The notes below the pieces were generated by a model. It was not told the origin of the DNA, made no database searches, and saw only the letters and a program-made list of their open reading frames with translations. DNA of 7,089 nucleotides from the IMG/VR virus record IMGVR_UViG_3300029577_000149, one strand, 5' to 3'. Made by a program: the position numbers and the translations under genes. This DNA is from a virus (taxonomy: Duplodnaviria; Heunggongvirae; Uroviricota; Caudoviricetes). Every line of letters starts with the position of its first letter. The stretch's first letter is position 1. This document shows positions 1,657-7,089 of this stretch, in pieces.

Positions 1657-2091
1657 ATGTCCGGTAATATCTATACGCTGTACAAATCCCACTGTGAAAA
1701 TGTTGGAAAGTATCGGGGCATTGAAATCAGTGGGGTAGTGTCATCAGTCGAAATAAGCAAAGTTGAATCAAGGGCAACATTACTTACTCTTCTGGACCTT
1801 GTCTTACATGAGCACCGGAAGAAATTCGGCACTCCCTATAATCAGTTGAATGGGAAAAAAGCTCTGGTTCACCTTATTCTGATGAAGCATCACTGGATGC
1901 CAAAACAGATTAATGAGATGAAATTTGATGAACTTCTTCTTTCAATTCAGGATGAACTCACGCTTGATAAAATAAGCGTAACCGCCCAGAAATTTTTAGA
2001 TTATCGAGACTGGAGATCACAAATTCATCACTTTGATGATTTTGACGAAAATGAATGGGATCCTAATTTGTCTGCACAATATCTAAAGTAA
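1657..2091 (+). CDS. Hypothetical protein, 144 aa, AT-rich accessory (moron-like) gene; no family recognised
   Basis: ORF-track 1657..2091 (+). AAGGA Shine-Dalgarno at 1646-1650, 6 nt before the ATG. Hand-counted G+C of about 32-42% in three 60-nt lines inside the gene versus about 58% in a line of the replication region. Acidic C-terminal tail (HHFDDFDENEWDPN). Transcribed against the leftward early operon. Confidence 0.6.
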   Translation: MSGNIYTLYKSHCENVGKYRGIEISGVVSSVEISKVESRATLLTLLDLVLHEHRKKFGTPYNQLNGKKALVHLILMKHHWMPKQINEMKFDELLLSIQDELTLDKISVTAQKFLDYRDWRSQIHHFDDFDENEWDPNLSAQYLK

Positions 2092-2269
2092 CATCCTGTG
2101 ATAAAACCGTGATTTCCTGATCCAGTTTTTTTAAGGAGTCTATTGTTTCCTGTCGATAAGACAGCACTTCACGAAGCTGGTTTATAGCTGCCAGCTTCTT
2201 TGCCATCCACTCGTAAATTTCCTCATTTGTGTATCCGGGTGCGACGATTTTTGGTTCTGTTTTGTGCAT
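2063..2269 (-). CDS. Hypothetical small protein, 68 aa; first gene downstream of the predicted pL; no arginine-rich N-like motif
   Basis: ORF-track 2063..2284 (-) trimmed to the ATG at 2267-2269 (MHKTEPKIVAPGYTNEEIYEW...), with GGAGGTG Shine-Dalgarno (plus-strand cacctcc 2275-2281). Heptad-like, charged C-terminal half. Its 3' end overlaps the 3' end of the 1657..2091 gene by 29 bp. Confidence 0.55.
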   Translation of the reverse strand: MHKTEPKIVAPGYTNEEIYEWMAKKLAAINQLREVLSYRQETIDSLKKLDQEITVLSQDVTLDIVQTN

Positions 2270-2314
2270 TTCACACCTCCTCAAGTTATCAGTTACTTGT
2301 TGATGGGGACCAGA

Positions 2315-2503: not shown

Positions 2504-3178
2504 TTAGGCTTTGATTTTGTATCTTCTTGGTTTTCCTGAGAAAATCACTGTACCAATTATAGAGCAATTACCGTTGATCTTAATGTAAGGCTCAGGCCAG
2601 TTTGGGTTTAACGCTTTGAGATAACGCTGTGTCCCATCTTCTATCAACCTTTTGAAGGTGGTTTCACCTGTATCGTGCATCAATGCAATAACGTCGTCAC
2701 CGTGGCAGGCAGGTACTTCAGGATCGACAAAAATCATGTCTCCCGGGCGGTACTCATCAATCATTGAATCACCTATCACCCGCAAGATATAAGTCATTTC
2801 CCCACAGGGTACAGGGCAGGGATACGTTTCTGCTGTGCTCAAATCAACCTCAGAATATCCAACTTCTTTCCATGCTCCGGCCTGTACCCATGATATGACA
2901 GGGACTAATGTGATTTGTTTATTAGTGATTGAAACATCAGGTTTTTTTGTGATGTTCGTTGTCTGGTGTTCTTGATCGAGCCATCCGACAGGCAGGTCGA
3001 AACATTTTTCGATGTGTCGTGCCATGCTGTCACCGATATTTTTAGTAGCACCATCTCCCATAAACCTGCTGGTCTGGGTTGGCTCGCGATCAATCATAGT
3101 GGCAAAGGAAGAATTCCCGCCAACACCATCTCTCAGTTTTCTGGCGTTAGACCGCCGGATGTCATGGATTGTTTTCAT
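2504..3178 (-). CDS. cI: CI-like prophage repressor with C-terminal S24 (LexA-type) autopeptidase domain, 224 aa
   Basis: ORF-track 2504..3178 (-). C-terminal half carries the S24 hallmarks: candidate Ala-Gly cleavage site (VQAGAW), Ser nucleophile in GDSM, and Lys in TFKRL, alignable by eye to lambda CI and LexA C-terminal domains. Divergent from a Cro-like gene across an operator-bearing intergenic region. Confidence 0.85.
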   Translation of the reverse strand: MKTIHDIRRSNARKLRDGVGGNSSFATMIDREPTQTSRFMGDGATKNIGDSMARHIEKCFDLPVGWLDQEHQTTNITKKPDVSITNKQITLVPVISWVQAGAWKEVGYSEVDLSTAETYPCPVPCGEMTYILRVIGDSMIDEYRPGDMIFVDPEVPACHGDDVIALMHDTGETTFKRLIEDGTQRYLKALNPNWPEPYIKINGNCSIIGTVIFSGKPRRYKIKA

Positions 3179-3193
3179 AACGAAATTAAAACT

Positions 3194-3263
3194 CTTGTAC
3201 CGTTAAGGTACAAGTATCTTGAAGGTTCATTTCAATCATGTAATATGTACACCGGAGGTACAT
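3194..3263. promoter_or_regulatory. OR region: two TGTAC-N7-GTACA operators flanking a candidate pR; possible leaderless pRM
   Basis: Operator 1 at 3194-3214 is a perfect 8-5-8 palindrome (CTTGTACC gttaa GGTACAAG); operator 2 at 3245-3263 is ATGTAC accggag GTACAT. Candidate pR: TTGAAG 3219-3224, 16-bp spacer, TAATAT 3241-3246. On the minus strand TTTAAT sits at -12..-7 relative to the cI ATG, suggesting a leaderless cI mRNA as in lambda pRM. Confidence 0.5.
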
Positions 3264-3268
3264 ATTGT

Positions 3269-3469
3269 ATGAAAGCGTATTGGGACTCTTTAACCAAAGA
3301 ACAGCAGGGCGAGTTGGCCGGAAAAGTTGGCTCAACATCTGGCTACTTACGGCTGGTTTTCAATGGCTATAAAAAAGCCAGTTTTGTGCTGGCTAAAAAA
3401 CTTGAGCAATGCACGTCAGGTGCAATTACGAAATCTGACTTAAGACCGGATATCTATCCGAAAGATTAG
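3269..3469 (+). CDS. cro: Cro-like HTH regulator (YdaS / Cro-CI family), 66 aa
   Basis: ATG at 3269-3271 inside ORF-track frame 2966..3469, preceded by GGAGGT (3255-3260). The stretch of that ORF upstream of 3269 overlaps cI antisense and is not coding. Translation MKAYWDSLTKEQQGELAGKVGSTSGYLRLVFNGYKKASFVLAKKLEQCTSGAITKSDLRPDIYPKD fits a small HTH regulator; the RPDI-type C-terminus matches my memory of YdaS-like proteins. Confidence 0.75.
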   Translation: MKAYWDSLTKEQQGELAGKVGSTSGYLRLVFNGYKKASFVLAKKLEQCTSGAITKSDLRPDIYPKD

Positions 3470-3500: not shown

Positions 3501-4074
3501 ATGAGGCTAATCGTGGGTAAGCATCACTGGAAAATAGAAAAACAGCCTGAGTGGTACGTGAAAGCTGTCAGAAAAACTATCGCGGCGTTGCCGGGTGGTT
3601 ACGCNNNNNNNNNNNNNNNNNNNNNNNNATGTAACAGAAAACGCTTTATTCAACCGCCTTCGTGCAGATGGCGATCAGATTTTCCCGCTGGGATGGGCAA
3701 TGGTTTTACAGCGTGCTGGTGGCACTCACTTCATTGCTGATGCTGTGGCGCAGTCTGCAAATGGCGTCTTTGTGTCTCTTCCTGACGTCGAGGATGTGGA
3801 CAACGCCGATATTAACCAGCGTCTGCTGGAAGTCATTGAACAGATCGGCAGTTATTCAAAACAGATTCGTTCAGCAATCGAAGACGGTGTAGTGGAACCG
3901 CATGAGAAGACAGCAATTAACGACGAGCTGTATCTCTCAATTTCGAAGCTGCAGGAGCATGCAGCACTTGTCTACAAAATTTTTTGCATTTCAGAAAGTA
4001 ATGACGCCCGCGAGTGTGCAGCTCCGGGCGTCGTGGCGTCGATTGCTTCTGGTTGTGGAGAAACTAACGCATGA
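3501..4074 (+). CDS. YdaT-like (CII-position) regulatory protein, interrupted by a 24-N gap
   Basis: ORF-track 3501..3740 (frame 0, before the gap) and 3595..4074 (frame 1, after the gap) are most simply one gene whose frame across the gap is unknowable. Sits directly after cro as in Rac/CP-933P ydaS-ydaT. Start uncertain: ATG 3501 has no Shine-Dalgarno; GTG 3513 has GAGG at 3503-3506. Family from memory. Confidence 0.5.
3605..3628. other. Run of 24 N (assembly gap or masked bases)
   Basis: Literal n characters at 3605-3628. Confidence 0.95.
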
Positions 4075-4409
4075 ACAGTTTAACAACACACTACCGTCGC
4101 TCGCAACTGATTGCGCTTCCTTTACCGGGTGGAAAAGCGAAGGTGGAATATTGCTATGCAGTGAATGTACCAGGTGACAGGGAAATTGTAACCCACAGCT
4201 TTGCAGAGTGGGCTGTGGGTGATTTCAACCGGCAGAAGGAGACAGTCCTTTGCGACAAGTTAACCGCTGGTTCAAAGATCACTACGGAGTGCCCGTCAGA
4301 GTCATTCGTTGGGAGCCGGAAACACAACGGGTTATCTACCTCCGCGAAGGTTATGAGCATGAATGCTTCAGTCCGCTCGAACAGTTTCGTCGTAAATTCA
4401 GGGAAATAG
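4071..4409 (+). CDS. Hypothetical protein; ORF as written is 112 aa but the C-terminal third is probably out of frame
   Basis: ATG 4071 overlaps the upstream stop (ATGA), suggesting translational coupling. The first ~56 codons ([57 protein letters not shown]) look protein-like; the remainder is Ser/Thr-rich junk-like sequence. Confidence 0.4.
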
Positions 4410-4429
4410 AGGTCGGTCATGAGCACTAA
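4250..4429 (+). CDS. Alternate-frame coding segment (-1 relative to the 4071 ORF): either the true C-terminus of a frameshifted gene or a separate small TTG-initiated gene
   Basis: Own translation of frame 2: [62 protein letters not shown], stop TAA 4427-4429. AAGGAG at 4236-4241 lies 8 nt before TTG 4250. The frame opens after TGA 4220-4222. Too short to appear in the ORF track. Confidence 0.35.
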
Positions 4430-5360
4430 ATTAACCGGCTATGTATGGGATGGTTGCGCTGCATCAGGCATGAAGTTATCCAGCGTGGCAATTATGGCCC
4501 GCCTGGCTGATTTCAGTAATGACGAAGGTGTGTGCTGGCCATCAATTGAAACCATTGCCCGTCAGATTGGCGCGGGGATGAGTACCGTCAGAACGGCTAT
4601 CGCACGGCTGGAAGCAGAAGGCTGGTTAACGCGTAAGGCGCGTCGCCAGGGTAACCGCAATGCGTCGAATGTTTATCAGCTTAACGTTGCGAAGCTTCAG
4701 GCAGCGGCATTTTCTCAACTGTCAGATTCTGACCCGTCAAAATCTGACGCATCAAAATCTGACCCGTCAAAATTTGATGCGTCGAAATCTGGCAAAAAAG
4801 CGGGTTTTCACCCGTCAGAATCTGGCGGGGATCCGTCAGTAAAATCAAAACATGATCCGTCAGATAAAAAACCTTCTCGTCCGGACGCTTCGCAACCGGA
4901 CACGCAGACGGCTGAACAGGATTTTTTAACTCGCCATCCTAATGCGGTTGTATTCAGCCCTAAAAAGCGCCAGTGGGGGACGCAGGATGATTTGACCTGC
5001 GCACAGTGGCTCTGGAAAAAAATCATCGCCCTGTACGAGCAGGCTGCCGAATGTGACGGCGAGGTGGTTCGTCCCAAAGAACCGAACTGGACAGCCTGGG
5101 CAAACGAAATTCGCCTGATGTGTGTACAGGATGGGCGTACTCACAAACAAATCTGCGAGATGTACAGCCGCGTCAGCCGCGATCCGTTCTGGTGCCGTAA
5201 CGTGCTCAGCCCGTCGAAGCTGCGGGAAAAATGGGATGAGCTTTCCCTGCGCTTATCGCCGTCCGTCAGCACGTACACCGAAAAACGCGAGGACCCGTAC
5301 TTCAAAGCCAGTTACGACAACGTGGACTACAGCCAGATCCCGGCAGGATTCAGAGGGTGA
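4419..5360 (+). CDS. Phage replication initiation protein (lambda O-like architecture), 313 aa
   Basis: ORF-track 4419..5360 (+), AGAGG Shine-Dalgarno at 4407-4411. N-terminal winged-helix-like segment (WPSIETIARQIGAGMSTVRTAIARLEAEGWL), a central low-complexity repeat linker (DPSKSDASKSDPSKFDASKS) encoded by the iterons, and a Trp/Cys-rich C-terminal domain. Confidence 0.75.
   Translation: MSTKLTGYVWDGCAASGMKLSSVAIMARLADFSNDEGVCWPSIETIARQIGAGMSTVRTAIARLEAEGWLTRKARRQGNRNASNVYQLNVAKLQAAAFSQLSDSDPSKSDASKSDPSKFDASKSGKKAGFHPSESGGDPSVKSKHDPSDKKPSRPDASQPDTQTAEQDFLTRHPNAVVFSPKKRQWGTQDDLTCAQWLWKKIIALYEQAAECDGEVVRPKEPNWTAWANEIRLMCVQDGRTHKQICEMYSRVSRDPFWCRNVLSPSKLREKWDELSLRLSPSVSTYTEKREDPYFKASYDNVDYSQIPAGFRG
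4729..4788 (+). repeat. Four tandem 15-bp iterons inside the replication gene; candidate origin of replication
   Basis: CTGACCCGTCAAAAT (4729-4743), CTGACGCATCAAAAT (4744-4758), CTGACCCGTCAAAAT (4759-4773), TTGATGCGTCGAAAT (4774-4788). Further CCGTCAG copies at 4812, 4833 and 4857, then an A/T-rich tract at about 4840-4872. Same layout as ori-lambda within gene O. Confidence 0.6.
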
Positions 5361-5362
5361 TC

Positions 5363-5851
5363 ATGAGTCTGTTAAATGACGTTCAGAAATTCATTGAAGC
5401 CCATCCGGGGTGTACTTCCGGAGACATTGCGGATGCTTTTGCAGGTTACTCACGGCAGCGCGTTCTGCAGTCTGCAAGCAAGTTACGTCAGAGTGGGCGT
5501 GTGGCTCACCGTTGTGAAGGAGATACACGCAGACATTTCCCGCGCCTGACTGAGAGAGCGCAGGAACCAGAACCACAACCAGTTCGAGAAACCAGACCTG
5601 TGCGCAATTTCTATGTCGGCACTAACGATCCACGGGTGATTTTGTGCCTGACCCGCCAGGCTGAAGAACTGGAGTCCAGGGGCTTATACCGTCGTGCTGC
5701 AACCGTGTGGATGGCGGCATTCCGTGAAAGCCACTCCCAGCCAGAACGAAACAAATTTCTGGCGCGTCGTGAGCTGTGTTTACGGAAAAGCAGCAAGCGC
5801 GCTGTATCGAGTGATGAGTGGTATCTGTCAGGGAATTACGTGGGGGCGTAA
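5363..5851 (+). CDS. PerC-family-like transcriptional regulator with an N-terminal winged-helix-like segment, 162 aa
   Basis: ATG 5363 inside ORF-track 5357..5851; AGAGGG Shine-Dalgarno at 5352-5357; overlaps the upstream stop (TGA 5358-5360). C-terminal motif ELESRGLYRRAATVWMAAF resembles the GLWRRAA-type core I remember for PerC/Pch proteins; unverified. Confidence 0.5.
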   Translation: MSLLNDVQKFIEAHPGCTSGDIADAFAGYSRQRVLQSASKLRQSGRVAHRCEGDTRRHFPRLTERAQEPEPQPVRETRPVRNFYVGTNDPRVILCLTRQAEELESRGLYRRAATVWMAAFRESHSQPERNKFLARRELCLRKSSKRAVSSDEWYLSGNYVGA

Positions 5852-6177
5852 TGACGACGTTAACTCAATGCCAGCAGCAGGTGCTGGATATGCTGATTTC
5901 TTATCAGAAAGAACGTGGCTTCCCGCCAACCAATCAGGAGGTGGCAACCATGCTGGGATACCGTTCAGTGAATGCAGCGGTGGAGCATCTTCGCGCACTG
6001 GAGAAAAAAGGCGTCATCACGATAAAGCGTGGCGTGGCCCGGGGCATCACGCTTCATACCGCGGTGAAGGACGACGACAGCGAGGCGGTCGGGATTATCC
6101 GCTCACTGCTTGCCGGTGAGGAAAACGCCAGGCTGCGTGCAACCCACTGGTTACATAAGAGGGGCCTGAAAGTATGA
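5851..6177 (+). CDS. LexA N-terminal DNA-binding-domain homolog lacking the S24 peptidase domain, 108 aa
   Basis: ATG 5851 overlaps the upstream stop (TAATG) inside ORF-track 5818..6177. MTTLTQCQQQVLDMLISYQKERGFPPTNQEVATMLGYRSVNAAVEHLRALEKKGVITIKRGVARGITL aligns by eye along its length with the E. coli LexA N-terminus ([68 protein letters not shown], from memory). No Ala-Gly/Ser/Lys protease module follows. Confidence 0.75.
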   Translation: MTTLTQCQQQVLDMLISYQKERGFPPTNQEVATMLGYRSVNAAVEHLRALEKKGVITIKRGVARGITLHTAVKDDDSEAVGIIRSLLAGEENARLRATHWLHKRGLKV

Positions 6178-6563
6178 AGCTGATCCTGCCTTTCCCGCCC
6201 AGCGTGAACACGTACTGGCGACACCCCAACAAAGGGGCGTTTGCAGGTAAGAGCCTGATAAGCGCGGCGGGGCGAAAATTTCAGAGCGCGGCGTGCGCAG
6301 CAATAGTTGAACAGTTACGTCGTCTGCCGAAACCAACGTCGGCACCTGCTTCAGTGGAGATCGTGTTGTTTCCTCCGGATAACAGGATCCGCGATCTGGA
6401 CAACTATAACAAGGCGCTGTTTGACGCCCTGACCCACGCGGGGGTGTGGGAAGACGACAGTCAGGTGAAAAGAATGCTGGTGGAGTGGGGACCGGTTATC
6501 CCGGAAGGGAAGGTCGAGATCACTATCAGTAAGTACGAGAAAACGGCGGGTGCAGCCGCCTGA
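6174..6563 (+). CDS. rusA: RusA-family Holliday junction resolvase, 129 aa
   Basis: ORF-track 6174..6563; ATG overlaps the upstream stop (ATGA). Motifs LPFPPSVNTYWRH and RDLDNYNKALFDALTHAGVWEDDSQV match RusA ([39 protein letters not shown], from memory). Confidence 0.85.
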   Translation: MKLILPFPPSVNTYWRHPNKGAFAGKSLISAAGRKFQSAACAAIVEQLRRLPKPTSAPASVEIVLFPPDNRIRDLDNYNKALFDALTHAGVWEDDSQVKRMLVEWGPVIPEGKVEITISKYEKTAGAAA

Positions 6564-6582
6564 TCAAGAGGAGAAACGAAGT

Positions 6583-7089
6583 ATGAATAATCTGATGGTC
6601 ATTGATGGTATTGAAGTTCGTCGTGATGCTTATGGACGTTACAGCCTGAACGATCTGCATCGCGCAGCAGTAGCATCTGGTGCAAATGCCAGAACCAAGG
6701 AGCCAGGAAAGTTTCTTTCCAGCCAACAAACTGTTGAACTTGTTCATGAATTGACCAACACCCAGAATTTGGGTGTTGACCCGGTGAGTGTGATTCATGG
6801 GGGAAATGAACGGGGAACGTATGTCTGCAAAGAACTGGTGTATGCCTATGCAATGTGGATCAGCCCGTCATTCCATCTAAAGGTGATCCGTACTTTCGAT
6901 ATGGTAACCAGCGCACCGGAAAAATTATCCGGGCAGGCTGCTGACAAGATGCAGGCTGGTGTGATTCTGCTGGACTTTATGCGCAGGGAGTTAAATCTGT
7001 CTAACTCTTCAGTGCTTGGTGCCTGTCAGAAACTCCAGGAGGCTGTTGGCTTACCGAATCTGGCACCGCGCTATGCCATTGATGCTCCT
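6583..7089 (+). CDS. KilA-N domain protein (antirepressor-like); 3' end truncated by window edge
   Basis: ATG 6583 preceded by AGAGGAG (6567-6573). Frame stays open to the end of the window (169 codons), so it is absent from the ORF track. Own translation MNNLMVIDGIEVRRDAYGRYSLNDLHRAAVASGAN...GTYVCKELVYAYAMWISPSFHLKVIRTFD is typical of KilA-N domains. Confidence 0.7.
   Translation, partial: MNNLMVIDGIEVRRDAYGRYSLNDLHRAAVASGANARTKEPGKFLSSQQTVELVHELTNTQNLGVDPVSVIHGGNERGTYVCKELVYAYAMWISPSFHLKVIRTFDMVTSAPEKLSGQAADKMQAGVILLDFMRRELNLSNSSVLGACQKLQEAVGLPNLAPRYAIDAP

Follow-up and report, generated by a model that had tools for sequence, protein, structure and literature searches.

A LexA-type DNA-binding head with a predicted helical tail and its YfdN-type neighbor in the early operon of lambdoid prophages

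The IMG/VR virus record IMGVR_UViG_3300029577_000149, a stretch of 7,089 nucleotides (nt) that was analyzed as a whole and is referred to as the window, contains two adjoining genes which an earlier note on this DNA had read as a translationally coupled regulatory pair: one encodes a 162-amino-acid (aa) PerC-family protein of the YfdN type, the other a 108-aa protein that resembles the DNA-binding domain of LexA. We are nearly certain of the anatomy and the operon context of these genes. Their arrangement across related phages indicates that they are not a dedicated functional pair; both are ordinary accessory genes in the early-right (pR) operon of a lambdoid prophage of the SfV/SfIV/mEp460/CPS-53 type from Escherichia coli and Shigella. 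Annotations for both families exist (in Pfam, PHROG 362 and 1324, and PGAP), and the two are extremely common, which makes the finding as first framed ordinary genomics. What is of interest here is a LexA head with a new tail that is widespread in prophages and has a sister clade inside LexA-controlled antirepressor operons. That this LexA-like protein binds SOS-box-type sites as an uncleavable repressor is our best single hypothesis, which is not established and which we rate, from sequence comparison, as slightly short of probable.

The LexA-like gene runs from an ATG at position 5851 to a TGA at 6175-6177. Its first 65 residues cover the whole 65-position Pfam model LexA_DNA_bind (PF01726; E 2.9e-19, 69 bits against a cutoff of 23.7), such that a profile search reproduces the alignment to LexA which the earlier note had proposed. 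A phmmer search of the PDB aligned residues 2 to 69 without gaps to the N-terminal domain of E. coli LexA (1lea, E 7e-16). In addition, Foldseek placed an AlphaFold model, built on 16 homologues with a predicted local distance difference test (pLDDT) score of 83, on the LexA-DNA complex 3jso with a root mean square deviation of 1.0 Å over 68 residues and 50% identity. The S24 peptidase and dimerization domain with its Ser119/Lys156 dyad gave no PF00717 match in the LexA-like protein, which ends at residue 108, in the same search that found the CI repressor of the prophage. A LexA DNA-binding domain without the protease domain is therefore an accurate description. The protein is full-length related to PHROG 362 (residues 1 to 108, E 1.3e-59) and already carries the PGAP product name "LexA family protein/transcriptional regulator," yet it scores below the cutoff of the LexA equivalog model (NCBIfam lexA, TIGR00498; 70.7 versus 110.95 bits, with model positions 1 to 91 of 203 covered). 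That is, it fails three tested features of LexA: the S24 domain, the Ala84-Gly85 cleavage site, and the equivalog cutoff.

An exhaustive phmmer search revealed short full-length homologues of the LexA-like protein at 38-52% identity in Enterobacterales and beyond. When genome contigs were searched with a profile, nearly all matches were host lexA genes, and a single member of the short family was recovered, from Buttiauxella. E. coli LexA is reported to contact DNA through the helix-3 residues S39, N41, A42, E44, and E45 (PMC3091678). Four of these five (S39, N41, A42, and E45) are kept at identical numbering in the LexA-like protein, with E44 replaced by V, and S39 and N41 are conserved throughout the short family, down to 38% identity. 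The recognition helix of the clade to which the window belongs (RSVNAAVEHLRAL) is of the gammaproteobacterial LexA type.

The earlier note had aligned the 108-aa protein along its length with the LexA N-terminal domain, which holds for residues 1 to 69; residues 70 to 108 make up a helical tail specific to the family. The AlphaFold model predicts this tail as two helices (74-88 and 93-103) arranged in a hairpin, for which a structure search returned no match in the PDB. The family alignment shows a conserved hydrophobic pattern in the tail, with A97 and L101 invariant. Judging by the model, the tail is a family-specific helical hairpin and not the LexA linker or cleavage loop, and most plausibly it provides dimerization. 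As a separate observation, several database proteins (P0131, P0132, P0149, P0152, P0153, and others) lack an S24 domain and carry the LexA_DNA_bind domain twice, in tandem within a single chain, which may be another route to a two-headed LexA-type binder without a dimerization domain.

The phmmer alignment with LexA extends to residue 90, where LLAGE of the tail falls on VAA/GE of LexA, with A88-G89 on the scissile A84-G85. We considered a cleavage-site mimic at this place and rejected it: the motif varies within the family (LLANEE, LLVGEE, MVERES, IDDQP), and the segment is predicted to be helical, at a pLDDT of 88-90, with no strand-loop-strand. The same alignment is what speaks for viewing the protein as an inert leftover from the capture of a lexA gene, or as a decoy for the cleavage reaction. 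Since AG is not constant in the family, the segment is not a strand-loop in the model, and both length and tail are kept down to 38% identity, in Enterobacterales and beyond, we regard this explanation as extremely improbable.

As to the relation between the two genes, the earlier note was correct about coordinates, frames, and overlap: in the TAATG at 5849-5853, the stop codon of yfdN and the start codon of the LexA-like gene share one base, and this ATG is preceded at a distance of 5-6 nt by a G-rich run (GGGGG) that resembles a Shine-Dalgarno sequence. Other junctions are equally tight, however, with GTGA or a 2-nt gap (gene end 5360, ATG 5363) at 5357-5363 and ATGA at 6174-6177, and therefore the TAATG overlap does not define a pair. 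No consensus promoter-like or terminator-like site was found on the plus strand from 4115 to 7089. Co-expression of the two genes, as anticipated in the earlier note, is thus borne out by a shared operon with no promoter or terminator match between them, and translational coupling is probable; they would be co-expressed because they belong to the same operon, not because of a special coupling of the two.

Gene order in relatives gives a clearer picture. We compared 80 IMG/VR loci in which the LexA-like gene is 97-100% identical (close loci). In 25 of them yfdN directly abuts that gene, while in ~51, or about two thirds, a 654-bp dam methyltransferase gene lies between the two. Of the 30 best phage records, 27 likewise have dam in between, and in mEp460 it is part of the annotation. 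In contrast, rusA is directly downstream of the LexA-like gene in all 80 close loci. For the homologues at 38-52% identity, eight of nine distinct contexts have no PerC neighbor, and in the ninth the PerC gene is separated by Dam. Illustrative examples are Rep-Dam-methylase-LexA-like-RusA, Rep-LexA-like-RusA-Rha/ANT, Rep-PerC(78 aa)-Dam-LexA-like-x-RusA, and methylase-LexA-like-RusA-KilA-N. These distant homologues stay ahead of the resolvase slot with no PerC gene present, and at 41-48% identity rusA again follows with a 4-nt overlap.

If YfdN and the LexA-like protein acted together as a translationally coupled two-component regulatory pair, this would fit the TAATG overlap in the window, the winged-helix domain present in both proteins, and the joint occurrence of both genes in the same operon in 81 of 92 scored E. 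coli-clade loci. With dam in between in most close loci and phage records, no PerC gene in eight of the nine distant contexts, and every junction in the operon as tight as the one in question, we consider such a pair very unlikely; as far as sequence comparison can tell, the pair model, and with it the unit proposed in the earlier note, is already contradicted by synteny.

The YfdN-type protein can be described in its own right. Its ORF (open reading frame) starts with the ATG at 5363 and ends with a TAA at 5849-5851, while RefSeq has chosen the alternative GTG at 5357, which yields 164 aa, and the PGAP/RefSeq name yfdN, PerC family transcriptional regulator. The protein matches PHROG 1324 over its full length (residues 1 to 161, E 5.4e-77), and residues 98 to 152 match the Pfam family PerC (PF06069; E 1.1e-9, 38.9 bits against a cutoff of 22.6), in agreement with the PerC-like C terminus noticed earlier. 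According to AlphaFold2 (pLDDT 77), it consists of a winged helix (3-60), a disordered linker rich in proline and glutamate (63-84), and a three-helix PerC domain (90-149). A fold search with this model returned only generic MarR/ArsR winged-helix matches (E > 1e-3), and a resemblance to ANR-family small regulators stayed below threshold (24 versus 32 bits). In the reading that we favor, YfdN is an independent two-domain regulator, composed of a winged helix and a PerC helical domain, and not an obligate partner of the LexA-like protein.

The suggestion that YfdN, as a PerC relative, might activate virulence genes is not supported; its nearest studied short homologue, PchE, barely activates ler (PMC5931665). 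Residues 94 to 145 of the YfdN-type protein are 40% identical to residues 1 to 52 of PchE (52 residues), a group-3 homologue with a <2-fold effect on ler (PMC5931665). Whether YfdN is PchE itself was also considered, and rejected: in O157 Sakai, PchE (ECs_1588) is a protein of 90 aa from prophage Sp7, with the PerC domain alone in common at the said 40% identity. The gene yfdN has been termed "the K12 unique PerC homologue," and the K-12 yfdN was removed from a ler reporter strain only as a precaution (PMC5931665). A filamentation screen in UTI89 hit a region with yfdN2, the causal gene not being resolved by the screen.

Regarding a possible function of the LexA-like protein, we propose the following. 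By analogy with lambda, the operon would be transcribed only upon inactivation of the S24-type CI or upon infection, in the order replication initiator, YfdN, Dam (in most relatives), LexA-like protein, RusA, KilA-N, DUF968, and Q, and the stop/start overlaps along the whole chain make translational coupling likely. The LexA-like product would combine the DNA-reading head of LexA with a two-helix tail that replaces the RecA-sensitive S24 domain. The helical tail would dimerize the protein, and the dimer would bind CTGT-type palindromes or SOS-box-like operators as a repressor that RecA* cannot inactivate. Once host LexA has been destroyed, repression might be re-imposed or kept at LexA-controlled promoters of the host, the phage, and co-resident prophages. 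We can only speculate about the benefit, which could be to curb SOS functions, rival prophage induction, and SOS-controlled morons, or to auto-limit the antirepressor operon in Gifsy-like phages.

An uncleavable SOS-box binder is a reasonable hypothesis in light of the kept contact residues and of a report that the isolated N-terminal domain of LexA can to some extent still bind SOS boxes and repress, hence its removal by ClpXP is needed for full induction (PMC10584840). A farther-reaching version, which we consider possible but doubtful, sees the protein as a RecA-proof LexA surrogate: a dimer held by the tail would occupy SOS boxes after induction and shut the host SOS regulon as well as the LexA-controlled antirepressors, colicins, and morons of rival prophages, the late-region methyltransferase being an example of such a moron, and would provide negative feedback in the Gifsy-like clade.

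An association with the SOS response is visible in a sister clade (P0138, P0167, P0215, and P0232; about 40% identity to the window protein), for which 80 viral loci were inspected. A near-consensus SOS box was present ≤1.5 kb upstream of the LexA-like gene in 68 of these loci; overall, 76 boxes were counted in 115 kb, compared with 0.16 expected from shuffles, and 12 of 15 crude protein clusters had boxes. Usually, the box is located ~620-700 bp upstream of the LexA-like gene, directly before a dinI homologue (67/80), after which come a GTG-start ORF of 75-82 aa (79/80) and then the LexA-like gene. A gene for a LexA DNA-binding domain in this slot of a host-LexA-controlled operon is expected of a feedback repressor on SOS boxes. 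In a few sister-clade loci, dinI is replaced by a RecA_C-like gene. A 95-aa protein of this kind (Pfam RecA_C, 39 bits, with the cutoff at 27) occurs in loci L096, L205, L219, L223, and L245; at L096:3310-3597, it follows the SOS box and lies upstream of an antirepressor-like ORF and the LexA-like gene, in the place that dinI has in most of the clade. Going by its sequence, this protein is a possible modulator of RecA filaments.

Several observations weigh against SOS-box binding by the LexA-like protein. The scan for CTGT-N8-ACAG sites that the earlier note had called for came out negative, as the prophage window contains no site with a perfect core. It does contain six one-mismatch sites where 2.4 are expected, a number reached by 8 of 200 shuffles. 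In 117 kb upstream of the LexA-like gene, the window clade has 0 SOS boxes, and no box was found within 4 kb of the gene in 54 of the 80 close loci; nor were dinI or the small antirepressor-like ORF found in this clade. SOS boxes as cis targets in the window were rejected on account of the missing perfect core and of those 54 loci. Candidate boxes in relatives are scattered, occurring in the immunity region of mEp460, upstream of KilA-N (SfIV-like), and at a late methyltransferase gene (mEp460 and the prophage of E. coli EP91B), and in the EP91B prophage, the box at that methyltransferase gene, within its first codons, is the only one. In the sister clade, many recognition helices are changed (SSSNAVLLHL, with E44L and E45L) while the upstream box is still host-consensus; the box may therefore serve host LexA only, and may say little about the target of the phage LexA-like protein itself. 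Dimerization through the tail derives from a monomer model with a predicted template modeling score of 0.56, and the half-site spacing could differ from that of LexA. Moreover, the conserved neighborhood of rusA and the nin genes is equally compatible with a role in replication or recombination. Finally, a search of the literature turned up no functional study of the LexA-like protein, and its binding to SOS boxes is an inference from sequence.

Nearly as likely as SOS-box binding, if still only a tentative proposition, is a phage-specific regulator or DNA-binding accessory factor that recognizes its own operator instead of an SOS box, with the LexA fold reflecting no more than its evolutionary origin. 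Such a factor might act on the nin-region genes (rusA, KilA-N, Q) or on replication or recombination intermediates. This would agree with the fixed position, after the replication module and ahead of the resolvase slot (rusA being downstream in 80/80 close loci, and RusA, NinG, or DUF968 in distant and sister clades) and with the lack of an SOS box in the window or upstream within its clade. Likewise, the recognition helix varies in the sister clade beside a host-consensus box, and a different tail implies a different dimer geometry. Yet the window-clade helix is LexA-type with four of the five contact residues kept, a repeat search revealed no other conserved palindrome near the gene, and the sister clade is embedded in SOS-controlled operons with dinI or the RecA_C-like gene. 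Of the readings considered, the uncleavable repressor at SOS-box-type sites is the one we would favor.

Two of the boxes in relatives deserve a description. One (TACTGTAAAAATAAACAGTG) is located outside the window at L093:30896-30915 of the EP91B prophage, and also at L002:10735 (mEp460). It overlaps codons 3 to 9 of a late-region N6/N4 DNA methyltransferase gene between Q and the lysis genes, and in the distant phage L098 a similar box (L098:6739) precedes the methyltransferase gene by ~40 bp, which suggests that the late-region methylase could be an SOS-controlled moron. The other (TACTGTATTTATGAACAGTA, L003:32639-32658) is found in SfIV, in the 165-bp intergenic region from rusA to the KilA-N gene; about 5 of the 80 close IMG/VR loci have a box at +700 from the LexA-like start. 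The rusA of SfIV is a pseudogene with a premature TGA, and in the window, KilA-N follows 20 nt after rusA with no box.

If SOS-box binding proved true, a very common family of prophages in E. coli, Shigella, and Salmonella, with Stx2c- and Stx2a-converting phages among its members, would possess an uncleavable copy of the DNA-binding head of the SOS master repressor. The duration of the SOS response, mutagenesis, toxin-phage induction, and cross-induction of co-resident prophages would then be affected after DNA damage, and it would become clear why Gifsy-like phages have the gene in their LexA-controlled antirepressor operon. Should the protein indeed be a surrogate of LexA, ~40% of E. coli genomes would contain this widespread additional layer of phage control over the SOS response. 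Without SOS-box binding, the LexA-like gene is one more annotated accessory regulator of the nin region.

The window itself represents the immunity and early region of a lambdoid prophage, as judged from the list of ORFs, Pfam and PHROG scans, and the RefSeq annotation of a 98.2%-identical complete prophage, located at tRNA-Thr of E. coli EP91B, which was used for gene order. Its left part consists of yfdQ/yfdP-like genes, an ECs1072-family gene, an S24-type CI gene on the minus strand, cro, a CII/CP76-like gene, and a 112-aa ORF; these are followed by the O-like replication initiator, the 162-aa PerC-family gene, the 108-aa LexA-like gene, rusA, and a KilA-N gene (Table 1). The CI protein carries an S24 peptidase domain, and therefore the prophage itself uses a cleavable repressor. 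The closest phages are SfIV, SfV, mEp460, and cdtI, together with many Stx2c/Stx2a-converting phages (96-98% identity). Of 5426 complete E. coli genomes, 2681 gave a match to the 815-bp region, and 2154 (~40%) contained 80% or more of it.

Table 1. Coordinates of the two genes and of surrounding features in the window
Feature	Position	Strand	Basis
CI-type repressor gene, ymfK-like, with S24 peptidase domain	2504-3178	-	Pfam Peptidase_S24, E 1.5e-26
Inverted repeat between cI and cro; probable operator/pR region driving the operon with both genes	3236-3272		Repeat search
cro	3269-3469	+ (ATG 3269)	ORF list/annotation
O-like replication initiator gene, HTH_36, directly upstream of the PerC-family gene	4419-5360	+	Pfam HTH_36; PHROG 391, E 3e-135
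yfdN-type PerC-family gene, 162 aa	5363-5851	+	Pfam PerC, PHROG 1324, RefSeq
TAATG stop/start overlap of yfdN and LexA-like gene	5849-5853	+	Sequence itself
LexA-like gene (N-terminal domain only), 108 aa	5851-6177	+	Pfam LexA_DNA_bind, PHROG 362, PDB match
rusA, Holliday-junction resolvase gene; ATGA overlap with LexA-like gene	6174-6563	+	Pfam RusA, E 6e-15
KilA-N-domain gene, 5' part, truncated by the window end; 20 nt downstream of rusA, same operon	6583-7089	+	Sequence; RefSeq annotation of 98%-identical prophage

Other parts of the window merit brief mention. A run of 24 N at 3606-3629 interrupts the CII/YmfL-like gene; the frame changes from one side of the run to the other, and 24 is therefore not the true length of the gap. 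An intact copy of this gene (558 nt) is present in the EP91B prophage. Within the replication-initiator gene, positions 4721-4783 harbor a cluster of inverted and direct repeats of 13-19 nt (GTCAGATTCTGAC / GTCAAAATCTGAC and others) that code for a repetitive SDPSKSDASKS peptide and, by analogy with lambda O, are probably origin iterons. At 4419-6563 of the window, as well as in the related loci L005-L007, there is a single HTH_36/Phg_2220_C replication protein and no recognizable helicase loader, either lambda P- or DnaC-like, before the nin-type genes; in L005-L007, the replication gene is directly followed by the LexA-like gene, the two overlapping by 4 nt. A gene for an ECs1072-family phage-associated protein (1657-2091, plus strand; NCBIfam, 157.8 bits) and, convergent with it, a 73-aa ORF (2063-2284, minus strand) occupy the stretch from the CI gene to the left operon, a site where lambdoid phages often carry exclusion or moron genes. 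PADLOC gave no defense-system match for the window, including these two.

Among known proteins, the LexA-like protein compares best with the N-terminal domain of E. coli LexA, or LexA(1-84) after cleavage (1lea, 3jso), with which it has in common the winged helix-turn-helix fold, the numbering, residues S39, N41, A42, and E45, and the absence of S24. Different from LexA(1-84), it is a gene product and not a cleavage product, and has a two-helix tail of ~40 residues unrelated to the linker or C-terminal domain of LexA. Its C terminus is ...GLKV, whereas the LexA cleavage fragment ends in VAA, an end recognized by ClpX. Compared with LexA itself, it is phage-encoded within a pR operon, has no SOS box upstream, and falls below the NCBIfam lexA cutoff.

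The YfdN-type protein is like PerC/Pch proteins of enteropathogenic and enterohemorrhagic E. coli, for example, the 90-aa PchE, in its PerC domain and in being carried by a prophage. It is almost twice as long as PchE, owing to an extra N-terminal winged helix and a disordered linker, and its gene resides in a lambdoid replication/nin region rather than a P4-like element.

At the level of operons, the LexA-controlled operon of the Gifsy phages comprises a LexA box, dinI, a small GUG-start antirepressor gene, and irsA (Lemire et al. 2011; PMC3121763). The sister clade of the LexA-like protein occurs in exactly that architecture at the same nin-region position, and the 66-aa gene after the irsA slot of Gifsy-2 is homologous to the gene after the sister-clade LexA-like gene (37-45% identity). 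The window clade differs in having no SOS box, dinI, or antirepressor-like ORF, and the CI of the window is of the cleavable S24 type. Identity of the LexA-like protein with Gifsy IrsA was considered and rejected, given that the gene in the irsA slot of Gifsy-2, STM1020, encodes a DUF1367 protein with no similarity, such that the genomic slot alone is common to both. No LexA-like or PerC-like nin gene is known in lambda. In its position, its tight packing of small accessory genes, its stop/start overlaps, and its resolvase gene before Q, here rusA, the region that contains yfdN and the LexA-like gene resembles the nin region of lambda.

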